DNA from: an uncultured Gemmatimonadales bacterium
GTDB taxonomy: Bacteria > Gemmatimonadota > Gemmatimonadetes > Gemmatimonadales > GWC2-71-9
Reading direction: 5' to 3'
Length of the DNA stretch: 64,000 bases
Assembly: GCA_963828735.1 (NCBI GenBank)
Contig: CAWHFW010000005.1
Coordinates: 1,728,001 to 1,792,000 of the forward strand
Of the stretch, positions 1,641 through 30,051 are shown piece by piece (position 1 is the first letter of the stretch; each line of letters begins with the position of its first letter). The position numbers and the translations under genes are program-made. The notes under the pieces are model-generated. The model was given only the letters and a program-made list of their open reading frames with translations. It searched no databases and was not told where the DNA came from.

Positions 1641-2699
1641 TCAAACGGTCGCCGGCTGCACCACGAGCGCCGTCACCATCCCGAACATCCCGTGCTCGGA
1701 TTCGGCGTGCGGCAGGATGTGGCAGTGGAAGGCCCAGGTGCCAGGGTTGGTGGCTTTCACCAGCACGTCCCACCGCTCGCCCGGCGCGATGTTGAGCGTG
1801 TCGCACTTCCACGGCGCCGGCTGGTCCCACCCGTCCTTGGCGATCACGGTCATGTGCATCCCGTGCAGGTGCATGGGGTGGATCAGCATCCCCTCGTTCA
1901 TGAACCGGATGCGCACGGTCTGGCCCATCTTGCAGACCACCGGCTCCGTGGCCGGAAAGCCCTTGCCGTTCAGTGTATAGCCGTGCGCGCCGTCGTTCAG
2001 CACCATCACGTAGTCCACGTCTGCCCGGTGCGCGGGGAGCGGCCGCTTCGGCTCGACGATGAACGCGCCCAGCAGCCCGTTGCCGACCTGGATCGCGGCG
2101 TTGTGATGCGAGTGATACATGTGCGAGCCGGCGTTGGGCACCGTGAACTCGTACGTGTAGCTCTCGCCCGGCTTGACCGGCGGCTGGGTGATGTACGGGA
2201 CCCCGTCCTGATCATTGGGCAGCTCGAGCCCATGGAAGTGGATCGACGTGGACTGTGAGAGCTTGTTGATCAGCTTCACGCGCACCCGATCGCCTTCCCG
2301 CACCCGGATCTGCGGCCCCGGCACCTGCCGGTTGTACGTCCACGCCCGGGCCTTCCGGCCCGGCTCGACTTCCCAGTCGATCTCCTCGGCGGAGAGCTCG
2401 TAGACCTTCACGCCTTTCTCGAGCCGCGGCTCGAGCAGCTGGTTGCCCTTGCCCTCGGTCTTGGCCGGAAACGCCTTTATTCCCTTCTCGTGCATGGCGT
2501 CCATCGCGTCGGCCTTCTGCCGAGGCGTGGACTCCGGCGGCGGGGCAGCCACCTTGGTGGTATCAGCCGGAGGGGCGGCGGCCTTGGTGTCGGCACATCC
2601 ACCCAGGCCGACCACAGCCGGGATGGCCACGGCGACGGCGCCCTTCTTCAGGAAGGCGCGGCGTGAAGTCGGATGGACCAGCGAGGAATGGTCGGACAC
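1641..2699 (-). CDS. Tat-exported two-domain multicopper oxidase (small laccase-like)
   Basis: SRRAFLK twin-arginine signal followed by GLGGC. Cu motifs IHFHG, YHSHH, HPMHLHG, HCHILPH...M. 352 aa fits two cupredoxin domains. Confidence 0.9.
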   Translation of the reverse strand: MSDHSSLVHPTSRRAFLKKGAVAVAIPAVVGLGGCADTKAAAPPADTTKVAAPPPESTPRQKADAMDAMHEKGIKAFPAKTEGKGNQLLEPRLEKGVKVYELSAEEIDWEVEPGRKARAWTYNRQVPGPQIRVREGDRVRVKLINKLSQSTSIHFHGLELPNDQDGVPYITQPPVKPGESYTYEFTVPNAGSHMYHSHHNAAIQVGNGLLGAFIVEPKRPLPAHRADVDYVMVLNDGAHGYTLNGKGFPATEPVVCKMGQTVRIRFMNEGMLIHPMHLHGMHMTVIAKDGWDQPAPWKCDTLNIAPGERWDVLVKATNPGTWAFHCHILPHAESEHGMFGMVTALVVQPATV

Positions 2700-18937: not shown

Positions 18938-21900
18938 GTGGTGCTTGGTGCCGTCGCATATTTAGTCGCCGGTAGGGTTGGCCTCCTCCTCTCCTTCGGC
19001 GCTCAGAACGTCTCCTCGCTGTGGCCGGCCGCTGGCGTCGCGCTCGCCCTCCTCTGGCGGTTCGGGCTCCGCTCCTGGCCGGGCGTGTTCCTCGGGGTCA
19101 TTGCCGCCTGCATCGGTTCGCGGTACCCGTTCAATGCCGCGATCCTGTTCGCCGTCGGCAACACCCTGGCAGCGGTCGCCGGCGTCCTGATGCTCCGGCG
19201 CGTGCCCGGTTTTCATCCGGGACTCGAGCGCCTGAGCGACGTAGTCCGGCTCACGGTGGTGAGCATCCTCGCCCCGACGGTGAGCGCCACGTTCGGCGTG
19301 CTCAGTCTCGCCGCAACCCACGCCTACCCGCTGACCCCGCCGATCGATCAGTGGCTCACCTACTGGTCGGGCGACGCGCTCGGCACCCTGCTCGTGGCCC
19401 CGCTCCTTTTCGTCTGGCTTGCCGGCCCGTACCGCCGGCCGAGCTGGCGCGTGGGCGCCGAGGCGACCATTCTGGCCGCGCTGCTGCTCACCCTGACGTA
19501 CGCGGTGTACTTCCGCACGCTGCCGCGACCGAGCCTGCTCTATCCGGTCGTCATCTGGGCGGCACTCCGGTTCGACCTGCGGGGCGCGACGCTCGCCGCG
19601 ACTGTCGTCGCGATCGGAGCCGTCTGGGCCTCCGCCACGGGCTTCGGTCCGCTCGTGCACGACGTCCCGGCCGAGACCGCGCACTCGCTCCAGATCGTCG
19701 TGGCTGTCACCGTGGGGATGGCCCTCGTCATCGGATCGGTCACCGCCGAGCGGCGCCGGGCGCTGGAGGCCTGGCGGACCGCGAGCGAAAGCCTGCGGGC
19801 GGTGTTCGATGCCGCGCCGCTGGCGATCGTCGCGACCGACGAGCAGGGACTCGTGAGCCGCTGGAACGCGGGTGCCGAGCAGTTGTTCGGATGGCGACGG
19901 GACGAGGTGATAGGGCGGCACCTGCCGACGATTCCCGACGACCGCCGCGAGGAGTTCGACAGGCTGTTGGCGCGGCAGGCCCGGGGGGAGTCCATCGTCG
20001 GGCTCGAGACCGTGCGGCGCCATCGGAGTGGCCGGCAGGTCCACGTGAACCTCTCTCTCGCGGGACTCCGCGGCCCGGAGGGCCGCATGGTCGGCAGCAT
20101 CGCGCTGATCGAAGACATCAGCGCCCGGCGCCAACAGCGGGACAAGCTGCGCGAGAGTGAGGCTCGCCTCCACACCGCGCTCGAGAGCCTGCCGTTCGAC
20201 TTCTGGATCTGCGACCAGGATGGGCGCTACGTGCTCCAGAACCCCGCGTCGGTTCGCCGTTGGGGGCGGCGCATCGGCTCGACCGCGGCAGATGCCGAGG
20301 TGTCACCCGAGATCCGCGCGCTCTGGACCGAGCGGAACCGGCGCGCCTTCGCGGGCGAGGTGGTGCAGGGAGAAGTCGAGTACGCCCTGCCCGAGGGCCA
20401 CCGCCACTTCCATGACATCATCGCGCCGGTCTACGACGGGGGCGAGGTGCGGGGCATCCTCGGCTGCAACATAGACATCACCGAGCGGAAACGGGCCGAG
20501 GCGGCGCTGGCGCAGCAGAAGGAGATCCTGCAGACCATCTTCGACCACGTCCCCGTGATGATCGCGTTCATCGACGCCGACGGCCGATTCCAGTGGGTGA
20601 ATCGGGCCTGGCGCGAGCAGCTCGGCTGGTCGATCGACGAGATGCAGGGCCGGGACATGATGGCCGAGTTCTACCCGAACCCCCGCGAGCGGAAGCAGGC
20701 GGTGGCGTTCGCCCTCTCGGCCGACTCCCAGTGGACGGACTTCCGGACCCGGACGCGAAGCGGCGAGGTGGTGGACGCCTCGTGGGCCGCCGTCCGATTG
20801 TCGGATGGGACCACGATTCAGATCGGCCAGGACGTGGGAGAGCGCCGTGAGACCGAACGCGCGCTCCGGCTGAGCGAGGCCCAGCTCCGCCAGGCACAGA
20901 AGATGGAGGCCATCGGCCGGCTCGCCGGCGGCGTCGCCCACGATTTCAACAACCTGCTGACCAGCATCCTGGGGTACACCGGCCTCATGTTGGACGACCT
21001 CCCCGCGGGTCACGCACTGCGCAACGATCTCGGCGAGGTCCATCATGCCGCCGAGCGCGCCGCGGACCTCACCAGCCAGTTGCTCGCGTTCAGCCGGAAG
21101 CAGGTGATCGAGCCGAAGATCCTGGACCCGAACGCCGTCATCGGGCGCATCACCGCCATGCTACGGCGCCTCATCGGCGAGCACATCGAGCTCACGACGG
21201 TGCTCGAGCCAACCCTCGGCCGCGTCCTGGCCGATCGGGGCCAGATCGAGCAGGTGATCGTGAACCTCGTCGTCAACGCGCGGGACGCCATGCCTGACGG
21301 CGGCCACCTTCGCATCGAGACCACCAACGTCGTGCTCGACGACGAGTTCAAGCGTCGGCACGTCGGGGCCGTGGCGGGACCCCACGTGATGCTGGCGGTC
21401 AGCGACGAGGGCGTCGGGATCGATCCCGAGATTCAGCCGCACATCTTCGAGCCGTTCTTCACCACCAAGGACAAGGCGAAGGGCACAGGCCTCGGCCTCG
21501 CGACGGTCTACGGGATCGTGAAGCAGAGCGGAGGCTACATCGCGGTGGACAGCGCGTCCGGGCGCGGGACGACGATGCGGGTGTACCTGCCGCTCGCCAT
21601 GGTCATGCCGCTCCCGGTCGTCTCGCTGGCCGAGGAGCGGAGCAGCGGAGGCAGCGAGACGATCCTGCTGGTCGAAGACGAGGCCTCGGTGCGCGGGCTC
21701 ACGCGGCGGCTCCTGGCGAACGCGGGATATACCGTTCTGGCGGCGGGCGACGCGGATGAGGCGCTCCGGATCTCGGGGGAATACGAGGGCTCCGTGGAGC
21801 TGCTGCTCACCGACGTCATCATGAGCGGACTCAGCGGTCCACGCCTGGCGGAGACGCTGCTCGGGCTCCGGCCGGAGCTGGCCGTGCTCTACATGTCGGG

Positions 21901-22057
21901 GTACAACGAGGATACCATCGTCCGGCAGGGGGTGTTACGGCAGGGCGTCGCGTATCTCCAGAAGCCTTTCACACCAGGCGCTCTGGCGCAGCGGGTGCGC
22001 GAAGTGCTGGATGCGCGGCTCGTGGACCAGGGGAGCGAGGACCTGGCGGCCGGGTAG
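18938..22057 (+). CDS. Hybrid histidine kinase: MASE1, 3 PAS, HisKA, HATPase, receiver
   Basis: MASE1 WPAAGVALA...YWSGDALG; PAS repeats; AGGVAHDFNNLL; NLVVNARDAM; GTGLGL; ILLVEDE...TDVIM...KPF. Confidence 0.92.
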   Translation: MVLGAVAYLVAGRVGLLLSFGAQNVSSLWPAAGVALALLWRFGLRSWPGVFLGVIAACIGSRYPFNAAILFAVGNTLAAVAGVLMLRRVPGFHPGLERLSDVVRLTVVSILAPTVSATFGVLSLAATHAYPLTPPIDQWLTYWSGDALGTLLVAPLLFVWLAGPYRRPSWRVGAEATILAALLLTLTYAVYFRTLPRPSLLYPVVIWAALRFDLRGATLAATVVAIGAVWASATGFGPLVHDVPAETAHSLQIVVAVTVGMALVIGSVTAERRRALEAWRTASESLRAVFDAAPLAIVATDEQGLVSRWNAGAEQLFGWRRDEVIGRHLPTIPDDRREEFDRLLARQARGESIVGLETVRRHRSGRQVHVNLSLAGLRGPEGRMVGSIALIEDISARRQQRDKLRESEARLHTALESLPFDFWICDQDGRYVLQNPASVRRWGRRIGSTAADAEVSPEIRALWTERNRRAFAGEVVQGEVEYALPEGHRHFHDIIAPVYDGGEVRGILGCNIDITERKRAEAALAQQKEILQTIFDHVPVMIAFIDADGRFQWVNRAWREQLGWSIDEMQGRDMMAEFYPNPRERKQAVAFALSADSQWTDFRTRTRSGEVVDASWAAVRLSDGTTIQIGQDVGERRETERALRLSEAQLRQAQKMEAIGRLAGGVAHDFNNLLTSILGYTGLMLDDLPAGHALRNDLGEVHHAAERAADLTSQLLAFSRKQVIEPKILDPNAVIGRITAMLRRLIGEHIELTTVLEPTLGRVLADRGQIEQVIVNLVVNARDAMPDGGHLRIETTNVVLDDEFKRRHVGAVAGPHVMLAVSDEGVGIDPEIQPHIFEPFFTTKDKAKGTGLGLATVYGIVKQSGGYIAVDSASGRGTTMRVYLPLAMVMPLPVVSLAEERSSGGSETILLVEDEASVRGLTRRLLANAGYTVLAAGDADEALRISGEYEGSVELLLTDVIMSGLSGPRLAETLLGLRPELAVLYMSGYNEDTIVRQGVLRQGVAYLQKPFTPGALAQRVREVLDARLVDQGSEDLAAG

Positions 22058-22078
22058 AGTGGGGCGCCGAACGCGGTC

Positions 22079-23650
22079 CTACGCCCCGCCCGCCACCGCC
22101 CGCACCGCTGACACCACCCCCGGCTGGACAGCCACGTCCGCAAGCGCGGCCACCGCGCCGATCACCGTAACGACCGGGTTCTCGAGCCCGTCCCGGTCGG
22201 CCGCGTCGGCGATCGTGGCGAGCGTGGCCCGCGTGACCCGCTGCTCGGCCGTCGTGGCGCTCTGAATGCAGGCGGCCGGCGTCTCCGGGTCCCGGCCCGC
22301 CGCCACGAGCTGCGCGGTCAACGCGCCAAGGCTCGCTCGGCCCATCAGCACCACCAACGTATCCACGGCCGCCAGCCCACTGACGTCGATCGCTTCGCCC
22401 GACCCGTCGGCGGTGTGCGCCGTGACCACCGCGAACGAGCGTGCGAGCCCGCGCGCCGTCACCGGAATGCCCGCCGCGGCAGGCGCGGCGATGGCGCTGC
22501 TCACCCCCGGCACCACGTAGACCAGGACGCCCGCCTCGCGGCACGCGGCCGCCTCCTCGCTTCCTCGCCCGAAGACGAACGGGTCGCCGCCCTTGAGCCG
22601 GACCACGGTGTGACCGAGCCGCGCCCGTGCCACGAGCATCGCATTGATCTCGTGCTGAGCGTACGGCGCGTGTCCCGGACCCTTGCCGACGTCGATGAGC
22701 TCGGCGTCGGCGCGTGCTTCCTGGAGCAGCTCGGGTCCGATCAGGCGGTCGTGCACCACCACGTCCGCCGCGCGGAGGAGATCGAGCCCGCGTGAGGTGA
22801 TGAGGCCCGGGTCGCCGGGGCCGCCGCCGACCAGATGGACCGTCCCGGTCTTCTTCGGCGGCCCGGTCATGAGCCGGGGACGGAAGCGCCGCGCGGGCGG
22901 CGGCGTGTGCTTACGCGCCAGGTCGACGACGATCTCCTCGAGCCCGGCGTATCCCCCGACGGCGTCGTCGATCAGGAGCCGCCGGTCGTCCCCCACCCCC
23001 TCCCGCCAGCCCTCGATGGCAGGCAAGCCCGCCAGCAGGGGCACGTCCTCGACCGCATGGGTTCCTCCCCCGATCAGGAACGGGATCACCAGTACGGTCG
23101 GGCGGCGGACCGATGCGACCACGCGGTCGAGCGGGGGGTCGTCGTCCAGGAATCCGGCCGCCACGTGGCCCGCCACGCGCCGGCGCCGCAGCGTATCGGC
23201 AAGCAGCTCGGTGGCGGCCCGGCTCTTCGGGTGCCGGCCCGTGCCATGGCCCGCGATCACCAGCCCGACGTCTTCCCGATCGACGTGCCGATCGCGCAGC
23301 AGCTCGGTCACCCGGCGGGCAACGAGCGGGGCCACGCCGGGGTGGGTGCCGACCGGCGGCGTCTGCCGCAGCCGCACGCCGCCGAACCTCCGATTCCGGG
23401 CGAGCGCCTCGGGCAAGACGATCTCACTGTAGTATCCGGCGCTCGTCAGGAACGGGACGACCGTCACCTCCTCCGCCTCGAGCTCGTCGAGCACGGCATC
23501 GAATCCGGGCTCGCCCTGGTGGAACGCCACCGCGATCTCGTCGAAGAGCCGGCGCGCGCGCAGCGATTCGGCCAGCCGCCGCACCAGCGCGTTCGCGCAC
23601 GGCTCCCGCCGCGAGCCGTGCGCGGCGATGACCAGCGCCCGGCCGCTCAC
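22079..23650 (-). CDS. cobA: Fusion of CbiX/SirB sirohydrochlorin chelatase and uroporphyrinogen-III C-methyltransferase
   Basis: N-terminal AAHGSR...VPFLTSAG and second half AGHGT...PFLIGGGTH; C-terminal VHLVGGGPGDPGLIT, VVRLKGGDPFVFGRG, VPGVSS. Confidence 0.9.
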   Translation of the reverse strand: MSGRALVIAAHGSRREPCANALVRRLAESLRARRLFDEIAVAFHQGEPGFDAVLDELEAEEVTVVPFLTSAGYYSEIVLPEALARNRRFGGVRLRQTPPVGTHPGVAPLVARRVTELLRDRHVDREDVGLVIAGHGTGRHPKSRAATELLADTLRRRRVAGHVAAGFLDDDPPLDRVVASVRRPTVLVIPFLIGGGTHAVEDVPLLAGLPAIEGWREGVGDDRRLLIDDAVGGYAGLEEIVVDLARKHTPPPARRFRPRLMTGPPKKTGTVHLVGGGPGDPGLITSRGLDLLRAADVVVHDRLIGPELLQEARADAELIDVGKGPGHAPYAQHEINAMLVARARLGHTVVRLKGGDPFVFGRGSEEAAACREAGVLVYVVPGVSSAIAAPAAAGIPVTARGLARSFAVVTAHTADGSGEAIDVSGLAAVDTLVVLMGRASLGALTAQLVAAGRDPETPAACIQSATTAEQRVTRATLATIADAADRDGLENPVVTVIGAVAALADVAVQPGVVSAVRAVAGGA

Positions 23651-25371
23651 CGGGCCACCTCCTGCGGCAACAGGTCGATCGTCGGCAGCTCGCGGCCGGT
23701 GACGACGGTGCGCTTCGCGCGGAGCCCCATCAGCCGCTGATAGAAGTCGCCCAGGCTCTCGTCACCGTCGCGCTCCGCCGCCCATCGGTGCAGCAGTGGA
23801 CGCATGGTGTCGAGCAGCTCCTCGATCGGTACGTCGGCCCGGTAGAGATCCACCAGCCGGTCGCCCGCGAGTCCTCCCCCGACGTACACGTTGTACAGCC
23901 CGAGCGAGCGACCCACGAACGCGAGATCCGCGGTATAGGGACGCGCACAGCCGTTGGGGCAGCCGGTCATGCGGATGGTGAGCGGCGCATCGCGCAGGCC
24001 GAGGTGCTCGAGCTCGGCCTCGAAGTGGTCGAGCAGGCCGGGAATCGCGCGCTCCGACTCGGCCACCGCGAGACCGCAGGTCGGCAGGGCGGGGCAGGCC
24101 ATGGAAAACCGCCGCGCGGCCGAGAGCCTCGTCGGCAGGGTGACGCCGTGGGCCTGGAGGATGCGCTCGACGGTCTCGATGCCGTCGGAGTCGAGGTCGG
24201 TGAGCAGCAGGTTCTGCTGGCCGGTGAGACGGATGCCGGGGCGCAGCCGTGCGACGATCTCGTGCAGCGCGCTCTTGAGCCGATGCGCTCCCGTGTCCAC
24301 GATCCGTCCGCTCTGGATGAACACGCCATAGAACCACCGCCCGTCGCTCTGTCGGTGACGGCCGAGGTGGTCGTGGAACGGGAGCCGCGGGAGGCTCACG
24401 GCCGGCGCGAGCGTGAACGACGCCCGCCGCTGGAACTCCTCGCGGAAGCGCGGCGTGCCCCAGTCGGCGAGGAGGTACTTGAGCCGCGCGTGCCGGCGAT
24501 CGCTCCGGTTCCCGTGGTCGCGGAAGATCGCGGCCACGATCCGCACGGCCTCGACGCCGTGCTCGGTCGGCACGAAGCCGAGCGGCTCGGCCAGGCGGGC
24601 GGCGGTGTCGCCCTTGTGGTGCGTCATGCCCAGGCCGCCGCCGACCAGCAGGTTGAAGCCGCGGATCCGCCCGTCCTCGACGATCGCGAGGAGCCCCACG
24701 TCGTGGGCCCAGATGTCCACGCAGTTGTCGGTCGAGAGGCCGACCGCGGTCTTGAACTTCCGCGGGAGGTAGCGGTCGCGGTAGAAGGGCTCTTCCTGCT
24801 CGGACGATTCCTGCTTCTCGCCGTCGAGCCAGATCTCGTGGTACGCCCGCGTCCCCGGGCGCAGCTCGACCGCGAGCGCTTCAGCGACGGCACGAACGGC
24901 GGCGTGATCGGCATCCGCGAGCGGCGCCGAGCACCCCATGACGTTGCGTTGGACGTCGCCGCAGGCGGAAATGGTCGTGAGGAGCGCCTCATTCACGCGC
25001 GCGATCGTGGGCTTGAGCTCGCCCTTGAGCACGCCGTGGAACTGAAAGCCCTGGCGGGTGGTGACCCGCAGGGTGGCGTTGCCATGCTCGTCGGCGATCC
25101 GCTCGAGGGCGAGGTACTGCTCCCCAGCCAGCTGTCCGGCGGGGATCGCCACCCGCACCATGAAGCTGTACGCCTTCTCGAGGCCGGCGGCCTCGAGCAC
25201 GCGGCGCGCGTCGCGATCGTCCTGCTGGTACGTGCCGTGGAACTTGAGCAGGGCGACGTCGTCGCCGCCGAAGTGCGTCCGGTCGGAGCCGAGCGTCTCG
25301 GCGATGGTGCCGCGCAGGTGATGGCCCTGGCGCTTGGCGACCTCGACCTTGGATTCCGGTTGTCCGGTCAT
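23647..25371 (-). CDS. cysI: Assimilatory sulfite reductase hemoprotein (siroheme, 4Fe-4S)
   Basis: KFHGTYQQDDRD, TTRQ, ACGDVQRNV, YLPRKFK, ACPALPTCGLA, MTGCPNGCARP. Confidence 0.95.
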   Translation of the reverse strand: MTGQPESKVEVAKRQGHHLRGTIAETLGSDRTHFGGDDVALLKFHGTYQQDDRDARRVLEAAGLEKAYSFMVRVAIPAGQLAGEQYLALERIADEHGNATLRVTTRQGFQFHGVLKGELKPTIARVNEALLTTISACGDVQRNVMGCSAPLADADHAAVRAVAEALAVELRPGTRAYHEIWLDGEKQESSEQEEPFYRDRYLPRKFKTAVGLSTDNCVDIWAHDVGLLAIVEDGRIRGFNLLVGGGLGMTHHKGDTAARLAEPLGFVPTEHGVEAVRIVAAIFRDHGNRSDRRHARLKYLLADWGTPRFREEFQRRASFTLAPAVSLPRLPFHDHLGRHRQSDGRWFYGVFIQSGRIVDTGAHRLKSALHEIVARLRPGIRLTGQQNLLLTDLDSDGIETVERILQAHGVTLPTRLSAARRFSMACPALPTCGLAVAESERAIPGLLDHFEAELEHLGLRDAPLTIRMTGCPNGCARPYTADLAFVGRSLGLYNVYVGGGLAGDRLVDLYRADVPIEELLDTMRPLLHRWAAERDGDESLGDFYQRLMGLRAKRTVVTGRELPTIDLLPQEVAR

Positions 25372-25378
25372 CGCTGCC

Positions 25379-26104
25379 TCATGCCTTTCGGGCCAGGTGT
25401 CGTGGAGCGTCGACGTGCAGGCCGCACTCCGTCTTGTCGGTGCCGGCCCAGCGGCCGGCGCGGGTGTAGTCGCGGGGACCCGCGCCGAGAACCGCGCTGG
25501 TGCAATGGGTGCAGCCCAGCGTCGGATAGCCGCGCTCGTGGAGCTCGTTGTAGGGCACGTCGTGCGCGACGACGTAGTCCCAGACGCGCCGGCGGTCCCA
25601 GCCGGCCAGCGGGTTCACCTGCACGAGCCGATAGGCGTCGTTCCATTGGAGCTCGCCGAGGCTGCTGCGTTCGCCGCCCTGGCTCCGCATGAGCCCGGTC
25701 ATCCACACGTCCACTCCTTCGAGCGCCCGCCGCATGGGCTCGACCTTCCGGATCGCGCAGCAGCGATCCGGATCGTGGCGCCAGAGCTCGGCGCCGTACC
25801 GCTCGGCCTGCGCCTCGGCCGTGAGCGTGGTGCCACGGTTCTCGAACCGGAGGTGTGGATAGCGCTCGACCATGCGGTCGCGCAGCGCGTACGTCTCGGG
25901 AAACAGGAACATCGTGTCCAGATAGACGACCGGGATCCGCACGCCGTGCCGCGCCACCATGTCGATGAGCGCGCAGCCCTCCATGCCGAACGACGTCGTC
26001 ACCACAAGGCGCCGGTCCGCGAAGCGACGGAGCGTCCACGCCACGATCTCTTCGGGGGTCGACTGCTCGGCGATCTCCGTCGCCGTCGTTCCGTGCGTCA
26101 GCAT
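25379..26104 (-). CDS. cysH: APS/PAPS reductase (4Fe-4S type)
   Basis: TTSFG, LDTMFLFPETY, DRCCAIRKVEP, GYPTLGCTHCT, RAGRW, ECGLH. Confidence 0.95.
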   Translation of the reverse strand: MLTHGTTATEIAEQSTPEEIVAWTLRRFADRRLVVTTSFGMEGCALIDMVARHGVRIPVVYLDTMFLFPETYALRDRMVERYPHLRFENRGTTLTAEAQAERYGAELWRHDPDRCCAIRKVEPMRRALEGVDVWMTGLMRSQGGERSSLGELQWNDAYRLVQVNPLAGWDRRRVWDYVVAHDVPYNELHERGYPTLGCTHCTSAVLGAGPRDYTRAGRWAGTDKTECGLHVDAPRHLARKA

Positions 26105-26126
26105 CTGCCCATGCTCTCCATGGCCC

Positions 26127-26164
26127 AAAAAAGGAAAAGCCCGCAGGACGTTGCCTGCGGGCTT
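26127..26164 (-). terminator. Intrinsic terminator (attenuator) in the cysH leader
   Basis: Minus strand AAGCCCGCAGG-caacgt-CCTGCGGGCTT-TTCCTTTTTT, about 20 nt before the cysH start. Confidence 0.85.
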
Positions 26165-26191
26165 CACACCATGCGCGTGAATGTCTGGCCG

Positions 26192-26299
26192 TTAGGTCGT
26201 CCGGTCGGGTGAGTCCTTCGCCATACAACAACAGGCCATCGCCCCCGCGAAGGGCGAGCGGGTGGCGAACCGAGGGGATACGGCCGAACGCATAATCAT
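26192..26299 (-). CDS. Cys-rich leader peptide of the cys operon (35 aa)
   Basis: MIMRSAVSPRFATRSPFAGAMACCCMAKDSPDRTT*; ATG GCC TGT TGT TGT ATG at 26239-26222; starts 6 nt after the -10 box. Confidence 0.8.
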   Translation of the reverse strand: MIMRSAVSPRFATRSPFAGAMACCCMAKDSPDRTT

Positions 26300-26305
26300 A
26301 CGGTT

Positions 26306-26334
26306 AGCCTAAGGCTCACCGGCGGGGTTGTCAA
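26306..26334 (-). promoter_or_regulatory. Sigma70-type promoter of the cys leader/operon
   Basis: TTGACA-N17-TAGGCT-N6-ATG. Confidence 0.85.
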
Positions 26335-26430
26335 CACCCCCTGCAGCTCGCGCGTCACGGTTTGGTAGTGGAGGCCTTGGCGACGGAGTCCTTCGCCGCC
26401 TTTCGCCACGGAATCCGTGGACGTGAGGGG

Positions 26431-27000
26431 TTAGTTGGGCGAGGCGTCGAGCGACGGGGCACCCGGCGTGGCACGGCCCACGAAATTGTTCGCCCGGGCC
26501 GCCGTATCCGACGAATCCGTCAAACCGTCCGCGTCGGGAAGGCAGGAGAGGATCTTGGCCGCGCGCTGCGCGCCGCTGGGGTGCCAGGCGTCGAAGCGGA
26601 ACGGGCCCATGCGGGTGAAGAACTGGATCGCCGCATCCACGGCGGGGGACTCGCCCAGGGTCCGGGCGGCGTAGCAATCGGCCTCCAGCTCCTGGCGCGC
26701 GCGGAGGGCGCCCAGGTCTCCCTCACCCGCGGCGAGCGCGGCGCCCGTGTGACCGTAGCGCACGTGCCCGTACTCGTGGGCGAAGAAGTAGGCCTCGAGC
26801 TGCGGGCCGACCCGCTGCATCAGGACGGGATTGTAGTAGATGACCGGGCGTCCCTGCTCGAACGCGGCGAAAGCGACGTCCCGCAGCGTGTCGCTCGGGA
26901 CCTGCCGCACGTCGATCAGGCGCTGCAGCGCCGGGGCCCGATGGGTCCCGGCGGCCAGCAGCAGCGCCGCGAAGACGGTGGCGATCCAGAACCTGCGCAT
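26431..27000 (-). CDS. Secreted zincin metalloprotease-like protein (M48-like)
   Basis: Signal peptide MRRFWIATVFAALLLAAG; AHEYGH, QELEADC, HPSGAQR. Confidence 0.75.
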   Translation of the reverse strand: MRRFWIATVFAALLLAAGTHRAPALQRLIDVRQVPSDTLRDVAFAAFEQGRPVIYYNPVLMQRVGPQLEAYFFAHEYGHVRYGHTGAALAAGEGDLGALRARQELEADCYAARTLGESPAVDAAIQFFTRMGPFRFDAWHPSGAQRAAKILSCLPDADGLTDSSDTAARANNFVGRATPGAPSLDASPN

Positions 27001-27252
27001 GGGCCCTCTGCTCGTGTACGAGCATTGCCGGTGCAACGTGAGGGCGGGGCGTCAAGTTCCGCTCAATGACGACGCCCTCGGCTTCGGTTCGAGCGCGAGG
27101 GCGTCGGGCGCGTCCGGGGACGGGCGCGGTCAGCGAAGCGGTCTCGTCGGTCGAACCAGCGTGAGCCTGGGGGTGGCCCAACGCGTCGTGCGATGGATCA
27201 AACGGGCTGCCCTGGTTGAGAGGGGGCTGGACGGGGTTTTGATGCCGGCTGA

Positions 27253-29256
<2,004 letters not shown>

Positions 29257-29278
29257 CCCGCGGCCCCGGCCCTCGGAG

Positions 29279-29896
29279 TCACTCCTTCTCCCCCAGGCTC
29301 AGCACCGGCAGCTCGAGCCGCCACAGGATCGCCGCGAGGCGCACGATCGCGATCGCCGCCATCCCCGCCGTCGCTGCGGGGTCGCGCGGCACGCCCTTCC
29401 ACTCGAGCAGCAGGTAGAGCGCCGCCCCGGCGATCGCCGAGCTCGCGTAGAGCTGCCCGCCCCGCATGATGAGCGGGATCTCCGCGCAGAGCACGTCGCG
29501 CACCACCCCGCCGGCGACACCCGTGATCACTCCCATCAGGCCCGCGAGCAGTCCCGACAGGCCGGCCTGCTGCGCGATCTGGACTCCGCTGATCGTGAAG
29601 AAGGCGAGGCCCAACGCGTCCGCGACGAACAGCGCGCGGAAGGCGGGTATGCGCAGGCGCGCATACATCAGGGTGAAACCGATCGCGACCAGGCAGACGA
29701 CGAGATAGGTCGGATCGGCGATCCAGAAGATCGGGTGCCGGTCGAGCAGGACATCCCGCAGCGTGCCGCCGCCGATCGCGGTGACCACCGCGACGACCGT
29801 CACGCCCAGCCAGTCCAGTTTCTTCCGTCCGGCCGCGAGGACGCCGCTCACGGCGAAGACGGCGACGCCCAACAGGTCGAGGACGTGCCGGGTCAT
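29279..29896 (-). CDS. Trimeric intracellular cation channel / UPF0126 (YadS-like) membrane protein
   Basis: Duplicated DLLGVAVFA...GGGTLRDVLL and DALGLAFF...GGVVRDVL motifs. Confidence 0.9.
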   Translation of the reverse strand: MTRHVLDLLGVAVFAVSGVLAAGRKKLDWLGVTVVAVVTAIGGGTLRDVLLDRHPIFWIADPTYLVVCLVAIGFTLMYARLRIPAFRALFVADALGLAFFTISGVQIAQQAGLSGLLAGLMGVITGVAGGVVRDVLCAEIPLIMRGGQLYASSAIAGAALYLLLEWKGVPRDPAATAGMAAIAIVRLAAILWRLELPVLSLGEKE

Positions 29897-30051
29897 CGCG
29901 GCCTCGCGGGATTCGTGGCGGTGGTGGTGGCCCTGGCCTCCGGCGAGGCGCCGGTCCGGCGCGGAAGACCACAAGCCGTGCGGGTGACGTGACGAGGTCG
30001 AGGCGAACCTAGAGTAGGAATCGGCCCAGATGCCGTCAAGGCCGCCGTGAC

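Follow-up and report, generated by a model that had tools for sequence, protein, structure and literature searches.

Leader-peptide attenuators of the classical kind, as in the E. coli trp and Salmonella his operons and the leaderless Streptomyces leaders trpL1, leuL2 and ilvL (described in the available part of PMC8079986), share a short open reading frame (ORF) with a run of codons for the end product, mutually exclusive 1:2, 2:3 and 3:4 helices, and a U-tailed terminator in front of a biosynthetic operon. For cysteine, these terminator-based systems show a gap: the one printed terminator-based case that we found is a prediction, uORFC-8-2, in which an upstream ORF (uORF) with a Cys-Cys pair and an intrinsic terminator precede cysS in the Rhodobacterales (Brewer et al. 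2021, PMC8632094). Going by its description in the accessible text, its two Cys codons are mostly UGC, lie at positions 14–15, and occur in Rhodobacterales only.

A cysteine response has been demonstrated experimentally for Ms5788A, a mycobacterial polycysteine leaderless short ORF (sORF), which works by masking a Shine-Dalgarno site downstream and for which termination was excluded as the mechanism (10.1101/834739, available portion). The same 2020 report states that no uORF-mediated cysteine attenuation had previously been described, and the type that it found was itself translational; in the part of PMC1262725 open to us, no terminators are given for mycobacterial polycysteine sORFs. In Streptomyces lividans, the leaderless leader metL, with interleaved Cys and Met codons, precedes the sulfur genes metNIQ; according to the excerpt of PMC8079986, this transporter operon has no typical intrinsic terminator. 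The literature searched, most subscription papers and supplements being outside its reach, held no experimentally tested terminator-type Cys attenuator, nothing under Gemmatimonad terms, and, in the available parts of PMC13236596, PMC13613805 and PMC2965389, nothing specific to the question.

Here we describe a candidate cysteine attenuator in a 64,000-nt stretch of DNA from an uncultured Gemmatimonadales bacterium (the window). At the level of sequence, its leader has every feature by which the classical leader-peptide attenuators are recognized; it differs from them in its predicted sensing of cysteine, in preceding sulfate-reduction genes, in its Gemmatimonadales host, and in a region 2 that can pair with both terminator arms. 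With uORFC-8-2, as far as the available text of PMC8632094 describes it, it shares Cys codons in a uORF, an intrinsic terminator and the proposed mechanism, and the claim of an earlier note on this DNA that the layout was undescribed is thus incorrect; the Cys codons of the window leader encode residues 23–25 and stand before cysH rather than cysS. Like the mycobacterial sORFs in the accessible text of 10.1101/834739, it has consecutive Cys codons in a putatively leaderless ORF before sulfur genes, but its Cys codons pair with region 2, not with a Shine-Dalgarno site, and a conserved terminator intervenes, 5' of the cysH ribosome-binding site. It is outside the mycobacterial class, which is translational.

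Anatomy of the leader and its genomic setting

The unit lies on the minus strand and comprises the following features (window coordinates).

26329..26334, minus: -35 hexamer TTGACA, read from the sequence; present in 29/29 loci selected by cysH
26306..26311, minus: -10 hexamer TAGGCT; 17-nt spacer from TTGACA, 6 nt before the ATG
26192..26299, minus: leader ORF of 35 codons with a variable N-terminal part; ATG at 26299, TAA at 26194-26192
26222..26233, minus: control codons Cys-Cys-Cys-Met (region 1); TGT three times at 26233-26225, then ATG
26187..26209, minus: region 2, the last five codons, the stop codon and the next few bases; from pairing analysis and ribosome model
26163..26181, minus: small hairpin, its apical part within the predicted antiterminator; one sub-clade only
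26127..26165, minus: intrinsic terminator and U-rich tail; stem 26165-26136, tail to 26127
25379..26104, minus: cysH, APS/PAPS reductase; NF002537 237.6 bits (cut-off 154), TIGR00434 220.2 (165.1)
23647..25371, minus: cysI/sir, sulfite reductase hemoprotein; NF010029 683 bits (cut-off 457)
22079..23650, minus: cobA (uroporphyrinogen-III methyltransferase) with an N-terminal chelatase-like fusion; TIGR01469 280 bits (cut-off 185)

The promoter (TTGACA-N17-TAGGCT-N6-ATG), the 35-codon ORF with its Cys-Cys-Cys-Met codons and TAA, and the U-tailed terminator all lie where the earlier note had placed them, and the cysH ATG (26104) is 3' of the U-rich tail. The run that the note calls "poly-Cys" has three codons here (three to six Cys in relatives). 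The spacing of TAGGCT and ATG suggests a leaderless start. A strict promoter scan returned no promoter and gave TTGACA/TAGGCT no score, so the promoter call rests on conservation. No Rfam family matches the leader in a covariance-model search: across positions 21000-30000, at E values up to 1, the sole match was the TPP riboswitch before thiC (27396-27504, plus strand, 55.3 bits). The leader ORF belongs to no NCBIfam family. All three downstream genes named in the note match their profiles above cut-off, with the refinement that cobA is a fusion; its chelatase-like part matches NF033198 and NF002090 weakly, below cut-off, and the protein presumably acts in siroheme synthesis.

The small hairpin that the note had placed over the terminator's 5' arm exists, but it shares just 2 nt with the terminator and is visible by eye in about 12 of 41 aligned leaders. 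With this 2-nt overlap and a distribution confined to one sub-clade, we rejected it as the antiterminator, which lies elsewhere (see below).

TGT is a minority codon in the host genome, at 802 of 5787 Cys codons (13.9%) in 1848 long ORFs, and the run uses it nevertheless, as the note had remarked. The 4.78-Mb genome has 23 promoter-plus-ATG sites, and the window leader is the only one to combine a Cys run with a terminator; 15 of these sites open ORFs of at least 100 residues, which would fit a genome in which leaderless genes are common. A genome scan placed a terminator-like hairpin after 5 of 136 Cys-rich short ORFs. Neither an ORF scan nor the leader covariance model found a second copy of the leader in the host genome, and no Cys leader was seen there in the 600 nt upstream of cysD-like, cysK-like or cysS matches. 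The genome, which is 97.5% complete, contains no SAM-I and no Sat-type ATP sulfurylase. Its only CysD-like match, below cut-off, is in a separate cysC-cysD-like cluster (G000:C2:750574-751443, L189); as no Cys leader was seen at this cluster, sulfate activation would be outside the control of the cysH attenuator.

Other short ORFs of the genome deserve mention in their own right. Outside the window, at G000:C5:2228524 (minus strand), a promoter-proximal 29-codon leader with a Trp/Phe/Tyr run and a terminator precedes a gene whose translation resembles prephenate dehydratase, and is probably an aromatic amino-acid attenuator. At G000:C5:1407408 (plus strand), a promoter-proximal 19-codon Asn-rich ORF and a U-tract hairpin stand before a putative outer-membrane protein, and this is possibly a nitrogen or Asn leader. 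A 27-residue ORF with nine Cys and its own terminator (G000:C6:75476, plus strand) is more suggestive of a very small metallothionein-type peptide than of a leader.

Conservation of the leader and of its pairing regions

The leader is directly upstream of cysH in 73/73 genus genomes with an orthologue (of 103 genomes; judged by eye), a count to be read in the light of kin that are not independent and of a covariance model built from cysH-linked loci. Three of the 73 are unpublished genomes (G003, G112 and G538), and G003 (L016) is also among the 29 cysH-selected loci and the 44 sub-family A leaders discussed below. The model was built from 41 leaders and gave 75 strong matches in 74 of the 103 genomes; at 48 bits or more, it matches one of the 30 genomes without a cysH orthologue. 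Of the two remaining matches, one lies at a contig end in G019, and one, in G024, has no cysH after it. In the latter (L246, 386-590), an intact leader and terminator stand before a short frame whose product looks like the C-terminal tail of an ABC ATPase, with a resemblance to CysA; the operon has apparently been lost by deletion, with the leader left behind.

The conserved unit consists of promoter, ATG, Cys run, a stop 9–10 codons later, and terminator. As the motif pattern used for scanning required Cys and Met codons, our unbiased sample consists of the 29 loci that were chosen through cysH alone. All 29 have TTGACA and, close to it, an ATG whose reading frame contains a Cys cluster (the note had proposed a search for Cys runs upstream of cysH), and the stop falls 9–10 codons past the last Cys of the run (10 in sub-family A, 9 in most of B). 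Among the 23 sub-family A loci of this sample, TGT makes up 67/69 run codons and Met comes next in 23/23; over the whole sub-family, Met directly follows the run in 43/44 leaders, and in sub-family B Met and Cys alternate. In their N-terminal part, the leaders differ from one another in both sequence and length, with the frame preserved: the ATG-to-Cys distance takes eight values in A and five in B, and leaders of the two sub-families span 20–43 codons. The run is preceded two codons earlier by an internal Met in just 22/44 leaders, and we discarded this ATG as a required start. A TA-N3-T box lies 5–7 nt before the ATG in 35/41 non-redundant leaders (exactly 6 nt in 31), and by this rule six sub-family B leaders are without it. 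The motif-pattern scan, which tests for sub-family A only, found at least 118 loci, 80 of them with titles; among the matches listed, 18/18 titled Gemmatimonadales had promoter, leader, terminator and cysH, and 0/62 titled non-Gemmatimonadales had a promoter-linked leader or cysH.

The terminator consensus has 10 pairs, three with changes on both sides. The antiterminator is formed by the last codons of the leader and the stop, pairing with the terminator 5' arm and the start of the 3' arm, and 84.1% of its cells are paired against 27.7–41.8% in slid controls. Both-side changes occur at 3 of its 12 pairs, nearly all marking the split of sub-families A and B; six rows of sub-family B supply 12 of the 13 compensatory cells, probably through a single event. 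Its extension along the 3' arm is 82.5% paired, with covariation not above shuffles (305/500). The Cys codons pair with region 2 (the 1:2 helix) at 91.2% against 28–55% when slid, covariation again not exceeding shuffles (235/500). This pairing explains the choice of TGT in the run, and also the nearly fixed third positions of the last leader codons. First positions in these codons vary, so that the constraint is on nucleotides and not on residues, and a conserved arrest peptide was rejected on this ground.

Cognate duplexes are on average more stable than those with arms of the other sub-family, at -20.2 kcal/mol for A with A against -14.2 for A with B arms, and -16.2 for B with B against -13.8 for B with A. 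The cognate duplex is beyond z -1.64 in 31/67 leaders (L133 and L173, with no terminator call, were left out); the test is not significant for sub-families B, D and singletons, nor for distant leader types. The window copy has a rare TAA stop (3/44 A leaders), and its duplex of -15.5 kcal/mol is not better than shuffles (p 0.27). Mutually exclusive antiterminator and terminator structures are predicted for sub-families A–C, weakly so in the window copy.

Proposed ribosome stalling and the alternatives to it

We consider ribosome-mediated transcription attenuation sensing charged tRNA-Cys, and possibly tRNA-Met too, to be the probable mechanism (roughly 0.8). The stalling on Cys codons that the note had proposed agrees with the conservation of the unit, its fixed spacing, its competing helices and the way in which SAM-II takes its place in some relatives. 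From the anatomy, conservation and complementarity set out above, we infer the start site, translation, termination and ligand response as follows. Transcription would start at or near the leader ATG, and a ribosome would translate the short ORF. When cysteine is plentiful, the ribosome would reach the stop and cover region 2, allowing the terminator to fold and transcription to end about 22 nt before cysH. When Cys-tRNA is scarce, it would pause at the Cys run, some 30 nt short of the stop, and the freed region 2 would pair with the 5' arm and loop of the terminator while the 3' arm is still to be transcribed. RNA polymerase would then read into cysH-cysI-cobA.

Folding with a ribosome at set positions, which the note had suggested as a way of finding the antiterminator, was modelled with footprints of 9, 10 and 12 nt. 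Since the fold of the whole leader was confounded by upstream refolding, folding was limited to the RNA that lies between the ribosome and the far arm of the terminator. In this model, a stall on the Cys codons leaves the helix of region 2 and terminator free to form: for a ribosomal A site at the Cys/Met codons, the probability P that the terminator 5' arm is blocked is 0.91–0.92 over the 44 A leaders, 0.71–0.95 over eight B leaders and about 0.79 over three C leaders. For the window copy, P is 0.52–0.64 with the ribosome on the control codons against 0.03 without it. Blocking falls off 4–6 codons before the stop, and its value of zero at the stop codon is a consequence of masking in the model. 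A stall anywhere 6–14 codons before the stop frees region 2 in the model, so that nothing but codon content would give specificity. The antiterminator has a mean P of 0.61 in A leaders even with no ribosome on the RNA, and the 1:2 helix therefore does not prevail in every case.

In full-length RNA, the mean P of the terminator in A leaders drops to 0.76–0.79 over the final two Cys codons and the Met codon, and is 0.94–1.0 from the codon after Met onward. At equilibrium, the terminator wins in 35/44 A leaders and in all B–E leaders (window copy, P 0.93–0.99 at the control codons), which means that the switch must be kinetic. Kinetic switching is usual for leader-peptide attenuators.

The nucleotide-level conservation of the last codons, with third positions nearly fixed, the pairing of the TGT codons with region 2, and the riboswitches that hold the same site in relatives would equally suit an RNA-only element, that is, a riboswitch or protein-binding leader in which the ORF is untranslated and the Cys codons arise only because a pairing strand is rich in UG. 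However, the frame from the promoter-proximal ATG survives many length changes, unrelated leaders in the order again encode Cys clusters, with TGT as well as TGC, and there is no Rfam match, making this reading very unlikely. Cys/Met-rich motifs can bind soft metals, and this capacity, together with the Met that so regularly follows the run in sub-family A, could point to arrest of the nascent Cys-rich peptide by a small ligand (sulfide, a metal ion or an oxidant) and not to tRNA charging. We regard this as the least probable explanation, since the residues flanking the run vary freely, the constraint at the C-terminus is on nucleotides, and the downstream genes make sulfide for cysteine.

A further reading concerns the host strain, in which the unit could be a fixed dampener or a partly decayed switch, with the TAA weakening the antiterminator and giving constant low read-through. 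The window antiterminator is indeed among the weakest, and the three TAA leaders have equilibrium terminator P of 0.99–1.0. Nevertheless, all other features of the leader are intact, and the truncated-transcript model favours the antiterminator upon a stall (0.5–0.6, against 0.03 with no ribosome), so we give decay or fixed dampening little credence. Within the preferred attenuation by tRNA-Cys, Met is possibly co-sensed: it is conserved, and no conserved pairing partner was seen for it, but the methionine branch of the host genome already has SAM-II.

SAM-II riboswitches and cysteine leaders across the order

A cysH match is present in 60/401 genomes of the order. Upstream DNA was assessed for 58 of the 60 (without G112 and G374), and two end at contig edges, leaving 56 loci, in which hairpins and U tracts were judged by eye. 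At 48/56, a hairpin is preceded by a Cys-rich short ORF, and these ORFs fall into several sequence types unrelated to one another; five loci have a SAM-II riboswitch only, and three have SAM-II and then a Cys-rich ORF. The distant leaders encode Cys clusters with both TGT and TGC. The SAM-II (RF00521) matches in relatives exceed the Rfam gathering score. SAM-II resembles the leader in its position before the operon and in the hairpin that follows, but it binds its metabolite directly and is absent from the window leader. The swap with a riboswitch for a sulfur metabolite gives independent support to the idea that the leader reports sulfur status by premature termination. In the host genome, SAM-II is found before genes whose translations read as MetH-like and ThrC-like.

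The serial loci, in which SAM-II with its own hairpin precedes the Cys-rich ORF, are L167 969-1039 (G304), L214 4537-4608 (G166) and L175 4644-4714 (G189); a further U-tailed hairpin can be made out clearly at L167 and L214 but less clearly at L175. At L206 2666-2741 and L207 1508-1582 (plus strand), SAM-II is followed by a short Cys/Met ORF before a ThrC-like gene, and these units are divergent from a Cys leader-cysH unit. In L153–L155, the U-rich tail and ATG after the SAM-II hairpin closely resemble the Cys-Cys-Met codons of sub-family A, which could be a coincidence or a hint at the origin of the leader. A sub-family B leader counted among the 48 (L164/L241; G323:C138, about 2350-2490, minus strand) has an in-frame TGA where its kin have Cys. 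Mutation and assembly error are possible explanations, as is a selenocysteine codon; G323 and three of its kin have selA. In another order of the class (L223, G485), a Cys-rich short ORF and U-tailed hairpin lie about 700 nt upstream of cysI, and the design thus reaches beyond the order.

The profile PRK12681 has no match over cut-off in the host genome. We take this profile to be CysB. Tentatively, and at somewhat less than even odds, the leader may be a sensor of two amino acids, through Cys- and Met-tRNA, within an order-wide set of interchangeable modules, in which unrelated Cys leaders, SAM-II, or both serially (as an AND gate) would control sulfate assimilation without a CysB-type regulator.

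With dozens of natural leader variants and an explicit pairing model, a terminator-based cysteine switch becomes directly testable, and the leader provides a compact cysteine sensor that is genetically encoded. The family also hints at the way in which a widespread and little-studied order controls sulfate assimilation.
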